Below are positions 988 to 42,350 of a stretch of 42,350 bases of DNA, one piece after another. The notes under the pieces are model-generated. The model was given only the letters and a program-made list of their open reading frames with translations, searched no databases and was not told the DNA's origin. Both the position numbers and the translations under genes were made by a program. Position 1 is the first letter of the stretch, and the number at the start of each line of letters is the position of its first letter. The stretch is from a virus (taxonomy: Duplodnaviria > Caudoviricetes): positions 1 to 42,350 of the IMG/VR virus record IMGVR_UViG_3300030361_000008; one strand, given 5' to 3'.

Positions 988-1016
988 AAACAAAAATCTG
1001 AACGGAGGCGCGTTAA

Positions 1017-1379
1017 ATGGGGTTCGATGCAAAAAGCGTAATTTATGGCGCAATGATCACCGCGACGGTTGCGGGCGTAGTTGGTATGTTTTTCGCACGT
1101 CTTAAAAAGTCGGCCCCGATCAGCGAGGCAGAAGCGCAGAAGATCGCAGACGCCGCCGCCGAGAAAATGGGCGAACAGCTTCGAAAAGAGTGCGCCGCAC
1201 AGCACATTGAGATAAAAAAGACAATCGAAGCCGCAGCGAAAGCCAGCGATAAAAGGGACGACGAAGTGCGCGCAGACTTTCGTCGGATGGGCGAAACCAT
1301 GCTCGCGGCGGTGAACAAACAAGATGCGCGGCTAACGGAACTAACCATGCACCTTTTACAACAAAGGGCAGAAAAATGA
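1017..1379 (+). CDS. Holin/antiholin-like membrane protein (one N-terminal TM helix plus cytoplasmic coiled coil)
   Basis: SVIYGAMITATVAGVVGMFF followed by RLKK. GGAGG RBS upstream. First gene of the lysis cassette. Confidence 0.6.
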   Translation: MGFDAKSVIYGAMITATVAGVVGMFFARLKKSAPISEAEAQKIADAAAEKMGEQLRKECAAQHIEIKKTIEAAAKASDKRDDEVRADFRRMGETMLAAVNKQDARLTELTMHLLQQRAEK

Positions 1380-1828
1380 CAACCGTTTTACTCGTAGACG
1401 ACGACGTCATAAGTTTAGAAGTTTTAGCCGAGGCGTTGAAAGACGAGGGGTACGAAGCCGTCGCAGTAAGTGACCCCGAAACAGCCATACAAACCGCTTT
1501 AGAGATAAAGCCGGATTTTATAATTATCGACATAGTTATGCCCAATAAGTCAGGGCTTGAATTGTGCCGAGAGTTTAAGCTGAACCCGTTAACGCGTGAA
1601 ATTCCAATCATGTTTCTAAGTTCTTCGGAAGACCTCAACCACGCGATCGCCTCGCTTCATTTGGGTTGTGTCGATTACCTAAGAAAGCCGATCCGAGCGT
1701 CGCAACTTAGCGACGTTATCAGAAAGCACGACGTTATCCGCGAGATCTCAAAAGTGTGGCAATGCGCCCGCCGTGAATTGGAAACCATACTGGACAAATA
1801 CCGCCATGAAGAAAAGCGAAATAATTAA
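1376..1828 (+). CDS. Single-domain response regulator (CheY-like receiver) with a short C-terminal helix
   Basis: VLLVDDD (D8-D10), phosphoacceptor D52 in DIVMP, SGLELC, S82, Y101 and K104-P are all present. No output domain. Confidence 0.95.
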   Translation: MTTVLLVDDDVISLEVLAEALKDEGYEAVAVSDPETAIQTALEIKPDFIIIDIVMPNKSGLELCREFKLNPLTREIPIMFLSSSEDLNHAIASLHLGCVDYLRKPIRASQLSDVIRKHDVIREISKVWQCARRELETILDKYRHEEKRNN

Positions 1829-2303
1829 GCGCATTATCGAACGCGAGGGGGGTTTCTCAGATCACCCGAACGACACCGGAGGCGCGACCCGCTACGGCGT
1901 AACCGAAAAGACCGCGCGCCGCCACGGCTATGAGGGCGACATGGCCGATCTACCGTATGAGTTCGCAGTAAAAGTATATTCGAATGAAAAGTGGGACGTG
2001 GTCAACGCCTCAAAACTTCCCGTTAACGTCCGCGAGCAAGTCGTCGATTTTTGTGTATTAGCCGGCCCGTTTCAAGCCGGGCGCGCACTACAACGCGCGA
2101 TTAATGTTTTCGGCGCACAGATAAAAGAAGACGGGATCGTCGGAAGTAAGACCGCAGCGGCCGCAAAAGAGGCAGATCCGGACGCGTTACCCGTTGCGCT
2201 TCGGTCTTTCATAGCACAATATTTTATTGCACTAGCTAGGACGCGACCCGCTAACCGCGCGTTTATAGACGGTTGGCTTTCAAATAGGGTAGAACTAAAA
2301 TGA
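1806..2303 (+). CDS. Endolysin, glycoside hydrolase family 108 with C-terminal peptidoglycan-binding domain
   Basis: EGGFSDHPNDTGGATRYGVT motif, DGIVGSKT and F..GW.NR C-terminus. ATG at 1806 is preferred over TTG at 1773. Confidence 0.93.
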   Translation: MKKSEIIKRIIEREGGFSDHPNDTGGATRYGVTEKTARRHGYEGDMADLPYEFAVKVYSNEKWDVVNASKLPVNVREQVVDFCVLAGPFQAGRALQRAINVFGAQIKEDGIVGSKTAAAAKEADPDALPVALRSFIAQYFIALARTRPANRAFIDGWLSNRVELK

Positions 2304-2527
2304 AACTATTTTTACTTAAAGTGCTGAAAAACCTCGGCGCGGCTTTCCTCACAGAAAAAATGGCAATTTGGGGCGCTCGCATGGCCGCCAGCTTTACCAC
2401 CAACAAGATCGACGACAATGTCGTGAACCTTATCGCGGCGGCGTCGGCTAACGACCCCGAGGCAATGAGAAAGGCGATCGAAGCAATCGCCAACGAGATC
2501 AAGACCAAGGACGGCCAAGGCGTCTAA
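2300..2527 (+). CDS. Small amphipathic lysis-associated protein
   Basis: ATGA overlap with endolysin stop. Cationic amphipathic N-terminus MKLFLLKVLKNLGAAFL and TTNKIDD motif. Confidence 0.65.
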   Translation: MKLFLLKVLKNLGAAFLTEKMAIWGARMAASFTTNKIDDNVVNLIAAASANDPEAMRKAIEAIANEIKTKDGQGV

Positions 2528-7705: not shown

Positions 7706-8665
7706 TTATTGGTTTGGTAAGAAGTTGTGATCTTGTTGCGGCTGTCCGCCTTGAGGCTGGCCGTAACCGCCTTGTTGTGGTTGTGCGCCTTGAGGCTGGC
7801 CGTAACCGCCTTGTTGCGGCTGTCCGCCTTGAGGCTGGCCGTAACCGCCTTGTTGTGGTTGTGCGCCTTGAGGCTGGCCGTAACCGCCTTGTTGCGGTTG
7901 TGCGCCTTGAGGCTGGCCGTAACCGCCTTGTTGCGGTTGTGCGCCTTGAGGCTGGCCGTAACCGCCTTGAGGCTGGCCGTAACCGCCTTGAGGCTGGCCG
8001 TAACCGCCTTGAGGCTGGCCGTAACCGCCTTGTTGCGGTTGTGCGCCTTGAGGCTGGCCGTAACCGCCTTGTTGCTGTAAGTGTTGCGTTTGTTCTTGGT
8101 AGCCGTTTTGCGGTGCCCCGCCCCCGCCGAACGCGCTCGCAGTATCAACGCCACCGCCGCCAAGGTTTAAGCGTGGCGCGTTCGCACTTGCAACGATTTG
8201 AACGGCGTCAAGCCCGGCGCTAATGCCTTTATTACCCGCGTTGTCGTAGTCGTAGCAATGCGCCAGCACGTTAACTTTTTGGCCGTTGTAGATCATATTG
8301 CTGTATTGCATAGGATCCAGCTTTTGACCGTTTTCGTCGTATACGTCCGGCGCTCGAAGCGTTGTTTTAAAGCTGATCACCAACCAGCCCGGAAACATAT
8401 TCTCGAACTCGCCCGGTTGTACTTGGCCGATCGGCATACGGCCACCCGCCGGAAGATTGCCTTTAAATTTACTTTCTTGTAGGCGCTTTTGCGCTAGTTG
8501 ATCGTAAAGCGGAATATCCGGGCATTGCGGAGGGAAAACAACTTTTAACGTCCACTTAGGTTTCCCGGCGTTCGCGCCTTGTTGTTGCGTTTCGGGTTGC
8601 GTTACGCCGTCCCAAACTACGATCCCGCCGTCTAGTCTTACATGATTTTCGTCGAATTGAGCCAT
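7706..8665 (-). CDS. ssb: Single-stranded DNA-binding protein (DUF2815 family) with long Q/G/Y/P repeat tail
   Basis: [19 protein letters not shown] signature; position between the DUF2800 nuclease and the polymerase. Confidence 0.85.
7733..8075 (-). repeat. Mixed 21-bp/39-bp coding tandem repeat (10 x GGYGQPQG)
   Basis: GCCTTGAGGCTGGCCGTAACC recurs 10 times, with or without an 18-bp spacer. Confidence 0.95.
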
Positions 8666-41062: not shown

Positions 41063-41658
41063 AAAAGTTAGCAGAATTTGACACGCTAGAAGCGGCTAAA
41101 GCGTATGCGCAAGTGCGCGGTAAGATGATACACCGCAACAGCATGAATGCGTGGCTATCTGGTGCGAAGAAGTATCGCAGATTAAAGGCTATCGCAGCAG
41201 ATGAAAACCATCCGTTAGGTGACGGTGCAGCGGCATTTCTAGACTCTACTGAATACAACTTGATTCAATCAAGCGAAACGGGGCAAGGTGTTATCCAGTT
41301 AATGCAAGCGCTGATTGCCGCAGAAGGCAATGACGCAGCATTACAGGCTGTACTTGATAAAGCTATCGCAGCAGCTAACGAAACGTATTACCCATACGAA
41401 AACGCAACACAGCACGACTTCGCAAAGGCGAAAGGTAATTGCCCAACTAAAACTGTTACACCTGAATCTGGCTATCTTAAAATCACACTAACGCAAGATA
41501 CAGAAGCGCATAGACCACAAGTTTACGCAATGGTTCAAGGCACAATGCAGCGTATTACTGGTTTTAATGTGGTAGAAAAGGCAGGTGATTACCTTGCCCA
41601 AGTGCCTCGTGTTTATTCGGTGCTGTACGTTGATGACGCTTACGGGGCTATTGTGTAA
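41059..41658 (+). CDS. Hypothetical protein in the host-recognition module
   Basis: GAGGAG RBS, ATGA overlap, AT-richer than the core genome. Confidence 0.75.
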   Translation: MKKLAEFDTLEAAKAYAQVRGKMIHRNSMNAWLSGAKKYRRLKAIAADENHPLGDGAAAFLDSTEYNLIQSSETGQGVIQLMQALIAAEGNDAALQAVLDKAIAAANETYYPYENATQHDFAKAKGNCPTKTVTPESGYLKITLTQDTEAHRPQVYAMVQGTMQRITGFNVVEKAGDYLAQVPRVYSVLYVDDAYGAIV

Positions 41659-42350
41659 TGGCGTATTACTTAGAGTTTGACGGACAAAACGATAGGGTTG
41701 ACATAGGTAGTGAAATTTTTGTTTCAGGGGATGGATTCCTTTTTGAAATAGATTTCGTTTACAAGGGAACCGCCTTTGACCACCTTGTTGGTGGCTCTAA
41801 TCTCATTTTTCGTATAAACAATACTGCTAGTCTTAATTTACGTGTAGATGGTAGTAGTCAAAACCTCAACTTTAACAACTCCTTAGTTGCGGGGGAGAGG
41901 TACTATTTCAAACTGGGAAGAACGGGTGGTGCATATCAAATCTTTAATGAGAATGACGAACCCATCTCTAACTCAAGGAATCTGCCAGATTCACCAATAG
42001 GGATATCCAAGATAGGCGCACAGTTCACTAATGCCAATAATATACCTATGGATTTCTATGGACTGAAAGTGAACCAAAGTGGGGTGTTAATACATAATTA
42101 TGACCCTAGCGCCTCAAGCGGCACGGGTCAGTTAATAGATACCGAAGGCGGCAACCACGGCACGCCTGTTAACTTTTCAGACTTTGAAGCTGCGCTTATT
42201 TACTATGATGATGGGGGCGGGGGTGGAGAACCGCAAGAACCGCCAGCCGTAACGGGCGGGTCAGACGTTGACGGCTTAAGCATTGCGGGCGTTGCGACTT
42301 CGGACGTAAACGCGCCGGGCGTTACGGGCGGATCAGACGTTGACGGCCTA
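41658..42350 (+). CDS. 5' part of LamG/concanavalin A-like lectin domain fibre protein (runs off the end and continues at base 1; not in ORF track)
   Basis: TAATG overlap; MAYYLEFDGQNDRVDIG...LIHNYD...GQLID..GGNHGT, then GGGGGEPQEPP linker and 24-aa repeats; no stop before the window end. Confidence 0.8.
   Translation, partial: MAYYLEFDGQNDRVDIGSEIFVSGDGFLFEIDFVYKGTAFDHLVGGSNLIFRINNTASLNLRVDGSSQNLNFNNSLVAGERYYFKLGRTGGAYQIFNENDEPISNSRNLPDSPIGISKIGAQFTNANNIPMDFYGLKVNQSGVLIHNYDPSASSGTGQLIDTEGGNHGTPVNFSDFEAALIYYDDGGGGGEPQEPPAVTGGSDVDGLSIAGVATSDVNAPGVTGGSDVDGL

Follow-up and report, generated by a model that had tools for sequence, protein, structure and literature searches.

A receiver domain coupled to a membrane coil recurs in phage lysis regions and may tune lysis timing

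Why should a phage carry a response-regulator receiver domain (REC) among its lysis genes? The question is raised by positions 1017-2527 of the IMG/VR virus record IMGVR_UViG_3300030361_000008, whose 42,350 nucleotides were analysed in full (hereafter the window). A sequence-only reading of this DNA had described a chain of four overlapping genes there and proposed that a phosphorylatable receiver controls lysis. We find that the receiver and the membrane-coil protein encoded just upstream form a real, conserved two-gene module of phage lysis regions, apparently not described before. Tentatively, and with slightly less than even confidence, we read this tightly coupled unit as one in which REC acts as a switchable antiholin-like brake, phosphorylated by a host donor and tuning the time of lysis; lysis would then be signal-controlled.

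The record is rated 100% complete by CheckV and belongs to an R9Y-like siphovirus, with a TerL 96-97% and a major capsid protein 90% identical to those of Alteromonas phages R9Y1-3; from this close kinship we infer that its host is an Alteromonas. The cassette comprises the following features:

1004..1008, + strand: Shine-Dalgarno-like GGAGG, 8 nt upstream of the first gene (sequence)
1017..1379, + strand: single-pass membrane coil protein of 120 aa (hydropathy, charge bias, family motif, AlphaFold2 (AF2) model)
1376..1828, + strand: stand-alone receiver (REC) of 150 aa with a stalk helix (Pfam, AF2, structural matches, alignment)
1806..2303, + strand: GH108 endolysin with PG_binding_3 (Pfam, PHROG)
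2300..2527, + strand: protein of 75 aa, weakly like phrog_402 (PHROG profile)

The four open reading frames (ORFs) overlap just as first described, with an ATGA, a 23-nt overlap and a second ATGA as successive junctions, and since their starts lie inside overlaps the three downstream genes are likely to be translationally coupled. The 23-nt overlap between REC and endolysin is derived: it arose by a 19-nt deletion of an ATGA junction that is present in R9Y1 and in an uncultured locus (L018), so that the last seven residues of REC are incidental. Upstream of its ATG at 1806 the endolysin ORF has a further candidate start, a GTG at 1773; it is the ATG that agrees with the start in R9Y1.

The product of 1376-1828 matches PF00072 (E 2e-24), and its AF2 model (predicted local distance difference test, pLDDT, 89) has the (beta-alpha)5 fold, with a root-mean-square deviation of 1.3 A to RR468. 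The complete active site claimed by the sequence-only reading was confirmed, D8, D9, D10, D52, S82, Y101 and K104 all being present. The extra helix of about 30 residues that it had noticed exists too, but is predicted as the continuation of alpha5 in one helix spanning 108-149, not as a separate element. The longest PDB matches, WspR, PleD and RssB (137-153 columns), run through this extended alpha5 stalk. In those proteins the stalk carries the output signal; the window REC shares the predicted stalk, but has no GGDEF or PP2C-like output domain, the protein ending with the stalk at residue 150. Its REC fold, full active site and lack of an output domain recall the single-domain response regulators CheY, DivK, Spo0F and RR468, from which it differs in being phage-encoded with no cognate kinase in the genome, in the 30-residue stalk after alpha5, and in that it is probably translated in concert with a membrane coil and with lysis genes. 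The lack of a histidine kinase, also asserted beforehand, held up: none was found among the 49 window ORFs scanned with Pfam, and neither HATPase_c nor Hpt matched any of the six frames of the whole, complete window. Membership of the PhoB/OmpR family was rejected, as a single helix and no winged-helix DNA-binding domain follows the REC core.

Is such a receiver a one-off insertion? A tblastn search of 50,697 phage records, for which 60 of 200 matches were listed, found REC homologues in R9Y1-3 (76-77% identical to the window REC in these cultured relatives), H4/4, R8W, V19, R22Y, V22, A5, PB15 and XX1924; among these matches, the cultured phages with the pair are all Alteromonas phages, of several families. 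Uncultured loci with a homologue are L014, L018-L020, L180, L182, L183 and L189. The remaining listed matches are mostly unannotated or host-derived-looking contigs, and the two that were opened, Bhz63 and E427, hold ordinary regulator-type genes. Omitting near-duplicates (L010-L013, L017, L179, L181, L184, L188 and R9Y2/3), we tabulated 18 loci, which represent about eight lineages of sipho-, podo-, myo- and schitoviruses and thus not 18 independent events. In all 18, REC is preceded by a small gene for a helical protein that has a single hydrophobic segment, the end of this gene lying between -11 and +4 nt from the REC start, and in 13 a PHROG 'lysis' gene lies at most three genes away. The receiver is therefore no one-off insertion: the pair is found in every tabulated locus, tightly coupled, with lysis genes nearby in most. 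The partner itself varies. Its hydrophobic segment is weak (Kyte-Doolittle 1.2-1.3) in five V22/A5-like loci, and is C-terminal in PB15 and XX1924, where the partner belongs to a different family, phrog_937; the V22 partner matches the profile of the window partner (E 2e-5), while those of V19 and PB15 do not.

The order membrane protein-receiver-lysin put forward by the sequence-only reading survives in its first two terms, since the lysin belongs to one of four types or has been relocated. Next to the pair, or close by, the lysin may be a GH108 enzyme, an M15 peptidase, a DUF5675 protein (assigned by position) or the A5 type, and it is exchanged at the same position between PB15 and XX1924 and between L180 and L182. 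In H4/4 and R8W, no endolysin was found within the region examined around the pair, which adjoins a holin-family gene of phrog_1356 (to which the N4 lysis regulator gp62 belongs). The pair thus tracks the lytic enzyme less closely than it does the membrane step. A partner-seeded search returned two loci, one of them new (L189), with the order coil-REC-DUF5675-small protein-Rz-Rz1. For three of ten partner homologues, which we looked up, the longest contigs have the sizes of those of independently found RECs (1162, 16933 and 8094 nt), indirect evidence that partner and REC are co-located. The conserved unit is coil plus REC, not the whole four-gene order.

Scans of metagenome and genome contigs gave, among the matches listed, four phage-type loci in 80, the rest being mostly ordinary bacterial regulators; no phage-type locus was recognised among a further 80 listed contig matches, four of which were opened, so that prophage copies may well exist, and two further viral scans gave no matches. 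A search for longer REC proteins, with 120 of 428 matches listed, from 269 aa, returned mainly bacterial multidomain regulators; that no fusion of coil and REC turned up among those listed is a weak negative.

Some side observations concern neighbours of such pairs and similar-looking arrangements. DUF5675 (phrog_1501, a family of unknown function) stands in XX1924 and L182 where the sister phages PB15 and L180 have an M15 endolysin; as it replaces that enzyme at the same position, it probably represents a family of endolysins. In the module shared by V22 and A5, genes of 'function unknown' look like Rz, an Rz1-like lipoprotein gene overlapping it, and a holin candidate with two transmembrane segments. 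On an unrelated viral contig (L015:2624-3348), a C-anchored coil gene precedes a receiver-like ORF and small genes that resemble those of membrane proteins or lipoproteins, an arrangement like that of PB15; in Stenotrophomonas phage Bhz63 (L009:3986-5532), a PhoP-like regulator and then a probable sensor kinase make up an ordinary two-component pair, unlike the module. The genes concerned are located as follows:

L187:2438-2836, L182:5315-5713, L189:3712-4101 and L005:5027-5422: DUF5675 genes
L006:4410-5281, L177:3910-4805 and L180:3419-4281: Rz, Rz1-like and 2-transmembrane holin candidates

What kind of protein does REC accompany? The product of 1017-1379 has a single hydrophobic segment (residues 8-26) followed by basic residues, from which an N-out/C-in topology is predicted, with the 83-residue helix in the cytoplasm; AF2 models helices at 5-32 and 37-119. 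Of the ORFs with 40-250 aa it alone, in our judgement, is plausible as a late-strand gene and has a Kyte-Doolittle segment of at least 1.6; of the others that reach this value, two lie on the early strand and the remainder resemble shadow frames. Since no other small gene on the late strand has a clear transmembrane segment, it may encode a holin or a holin co-factor; one transmembrane segment and a cytoplasmic helix (on the predicted topology), within a lysis cluster, are the layout of a class III holin or pinholin. Searching 1.84 billion representatives with its profile gave 27 matches, none of them a coil-REC fusion: besides the query itself, 25 were short homologues or fragments, and a single long match (P0040) was rejected as an unrelated repeat protein. 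The 29 aligned members have a variable middle and a conserved last 35 residues, and the C-terminal motif includes D87 (29/29), L109 (27/29), L113 (24/29), R105 (23/29) and H112 (22/29). We considered His112 as a phospho-histidine and set it aside, given its presence in only 22 of 29 sequences, near the C-terminus and without DHp-like context. An i-spanin (Rz) identity was likewise rejected: the charge bias places the coil in the cytoplasm and, in V22, A5 and L189, separate Rz-like genes exist in addition to it. A simple pattern search of the window found no lipobox ORF that could be a lipoprotein spanin.

Does the receiver still look phosphorylatable across the family? D8, D9, D52, S/T82 and K104 are retained in 22 of 24 RECs. 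Fifteen representative intact RECs, with a median identity of 28%, have seven invariant positions out of 150, four of which are D8, D9, D52 and K104. The phospho-site is visibly under selection. In a quick IQ-TREE analysis over 126 columns (21 phage-module, 45 bacterial and one other viral REC, three near-duplicates having been dropped), the phage RECs group together with a modest Shimodaira-Hasegawa-like approximate likelihood ratio (SH-aLRT) of 81, one bacterial REC-GGDEF row falling inside, and a single origin of the phage-module RECs is possible. The REC of viral locus L016, which sits among other genes and has no membrane partner, lies outside this group. No close bacterial donor was seen among the relatives found, which are at most about 41% identical and come from searches that did not extend to Alteromonas chromosomes.

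The two genes that follow REC are less conspicuous. The GH108 identity proposed for 1806-2303 is borne out by PF05838 (Glyco_hydro_108, E 3e-20) and PF09374 (PG_binding_3, E 3e-12), and the protein falls in the endolysin family phrog_315; having no N-terminal hydrophobic anchor, it is likely to be soluble and holin-dependent. The 75-aa product of 2300-2527, described beforehand as amphipathic, is modestly so but not strongly, and has no hydrophobic segment that attains Kyte-Doolittle 1.6. It weakly matches phrog_402 (E 0.002, against 8e-14 for PM2 itself), the family of PM2 gp l, which we take to be P18; a likeness to PF26925/PM2 gp l with an Atlas feature score of 0.87 is a lead only. Besides phrog_402, the two share the last place in a lysis cluster, but the match of the window protein is weak, at about 22% identity. 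According to the portion of a review consulted here, P18 contributes to breaking up the outer membrane (PMC6356626). The 75-aa protein may thus stand in for a spanin or be a small protein of holin-like type, the former role being uncertain because L189 has a similar small protein plus Rz/Rz1.

How might coil and receiver act together? Their tight coupling, the conserved C-terminal helix on a cytoplasmic coil and the REC stalk suggest that the two form a complex of fixed stoichiometry. REC would receive its phosphate from a host kinase or acetyl-phosphate, and would dock on the conserved C-terminal helix of the coil via its alpha4-beta5-alpha5 face or its stalk; phosphorylation would shift this contact and make hole formation earlier or later, either direction being conceivable. 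The hole would release the soluble GH108 endolysin, and the 75-aa protein would then help to breach the outer membrane. A prediction of the complex of REC with coil residues 28-120 (score 0.01, mark 0.32) weighs neither way.

Known lysis regulators offer partial precedents. The antiholins lambda S107 and T4 RI/RIII are accessory proteins that act on the holin to set lysis time, as is proposed for REC. We know of no such antiholin that is a receiver domain or that switches by Asp phosphorylation. A full-text literature search, which left out most subscription journals and all supplements, returned no description, among the matches listed, of a receiver domain in a lysis cassette. T4 RI is described in PMC12642591, and by the same paper N4 gp63 is a pinholin that crosses the membrane once; its rapid-lysis mutations are concentrated in a cytoplasmic helical region. 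As is predicted for the window coil, gp63 joins a single membrane pass to a helix in the cytoplasm. Because in N4 this helix governs the time of lysis, we favour for the window a REC that would hold the coil or let it go according to its phosphorylation. N4 has no REC, the 'Receiver domain' in that paper being the authors' name for a helical region and not a REC fold. A further link to N4 is the gp62-family gene (phrog_1356) next to the pair in H4/4 and R8W; between gp63 and the PB15 partner there is only a weak coiled-coil match (E 0.01), which does not establish homology.

A number of observations weigh against a phospho-controlled brake on lysis. REC-seeded searches favour copies with intact motifs. 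Five of the 18 loci have no library-annotated lysis gene nearby: L019 shows nothing recognisable as a lysis gene on its 2.4-kb contig and has non-lysis neighbours; L014 has as neighbour only a PM2 gp l-like small gene and L020 a 2-transmembrane protein of unknown function; in V19 and R22Y the pair lies on the strand opposite to its neighbours, a 2-transmembrane protein and DUF5675. REC is absent from ZP6 and AD45-P1, the two other Alteromonas phages tested. The coil protein has no holin profile match in Pfam or PHROG, other holin candidates occur in V22, A5, H4/4 and PB15, where the coil would be dispensable as sole holin, and N4 gp63 is C-anchored like the PB15 partner, the window coil being anchored at the opposite end. 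The pseudo-receivers of V19 and R22Y (L005:3998-4450 and L008:3998-4462) have lost D52, S/T82 and K104 while keeping D8/D9 and their coupling to the membrane coil, so phosphorylation is dispensable in one lineage. Finally, the consulted text of PMC10579305 has the pair moving with tail-fibre and host-recognition modules, so that adjacency to lysis genes is partly positional.

It follows from this last point that lysis control and a signalling decoy cannot be told apart by position alone. The pair might be a membrane-tethered phosphate sink that damps a late host two-component pathway (envelope stress, motility, surface polysaccharide or superinfection), its lysis neighbourhood resulting from travel with a late tail-fibre/lysis block. 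An intact phospho-site without output domain is what such a sink would have, the restriction to Alteromonas among cultured phages fits a host-specific target, and the sharing with host-recognition genes (again as excerpted from PMC10579305), the non-lysis flanks of L019 and the absence from ZP6 and AD45-P1 point the same way. However, the pair remains beside holin- and spanin-family genes though lysin and tail fibres differ, a sink needs neither a conserved stalk helix nor one-to-one coupling to a membrane coil, and the V19 and R22Y pseudo-receivers, unable to be sinks, are retained. We consider a decoy rather doubtful.

The same pseudo-receivers bring up a second alternative, in which REC is a constitutive, phosphorylation-independent partner of the coil, whether fixed antiholin, chaperone of assembly or scaffold, its active-site residues being kept for fold or metal binding. 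Persistence of the pair and of D8/D9 after loss of D52, S/T82 and K104 would fit, as would the absence of a phage-encoded kinase, but 22 of the 24 RECs, some pairs of which share as little as 16% identity, all have D52 and K104 unchanged. Such invariance exceeds what a scaffold role, as in pseudo-receivers, usually needs, and this alternative seems to us unlikely.

REC homologues have nevertheless been published under quite different labels. R8W g48, H4/4 gp44 and V22 gp30 are homologous to the window REC (48%, 49% and about 29% identity, respectively) and, like A5 gp11, follow a membrane-coil gene. In the consulted parts of their descriptions, R8W carries a 'PhoB' label (PMC8228385), H4/4 gp44 and R8W g48 are called 'PhoB' or 'DNA-binding response regulator', and those of V22 and A5 are 'CheY-like' class II auxiliary metabolic genes (AMGs) (PMC7289586, PMC10579305). 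The excerpts of these AMG accounts treat them as metabolic or signalling genes with neighbours of 'function unknown', and mention neither a lysis link nor a partner; in the main text of the R9Y paper, to the extent consulted, neither 'response regulator' nor 'holin' occurs (PMC9430817). These labels on the four phage genes, and the Pfam REC match, would make it a transcription regulator like PhoB or else a host gene that was captured and is neutral. Such a reading is highly improbable and largely refuted by domain content, since the 150-aa protein has no DNA-binding or kinase domain and is coupled to a membrane coil in all 18 tabulated loci; nor was it captured recently, as the bacterial relatives found do not exceed about 41% identity.

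Returning to a phospho-switched brake, its wider form is also possible, though we advance it with more hesitation: a widespread, horizontally shared module in which a kinase-less receiver clamps a single-pass holin coil and links the host His-Asp phosphorelay to lysis time and burst size, the pseudo-receivers being locked versions. Lysis time determines burst size, and is usually viewed as fixed by holin accumulation, or as delayed by superinfection, as it is in T4 and N4. If this holds, phages would have, in a receiver joined to a membrane coil within lysis modules, a direct means of reading host signals, and the 'PhoB/CheY' auxiliary metabolic genes of marine viromes would need re-reading. 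Phospho-control of a holin, if shown, would be categorically new among multi-gene lysis systems. The cultured relatives R9Y1-3 grow on A. macleodii ATCC 27126 with, by the consulted text of PMC9430817, an unusually small burst size of 15-19; V19 and R22Y provide natural phospho-dead controls.

Other features of the window are of minor interest here. A scan for promoters and terminators gave nothing specific in the window. On the - strand, 2499-2825 is a DUF7768/nucleoside 2-deoxyribosyltransferase-like gene, convergent on the cassette and overlapping its last gene by 29 nt. Tandem 39-nt repeats at 7732-8077, inside 7706-8665 (- strand), give a single-stranded DNA-binding protein a long low-complexity tail. 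The part at 41-42 kb has a GC content of 0.44, against about 0.55, which suggests an acquired receptor-binding module. An identical 72-nt repeat stands at both window ends, and a tail-fibre-like ORF at 41658-42350 leaves the window end and continues at 1-360; the genome is therefore probably circular and broken in the repeat.
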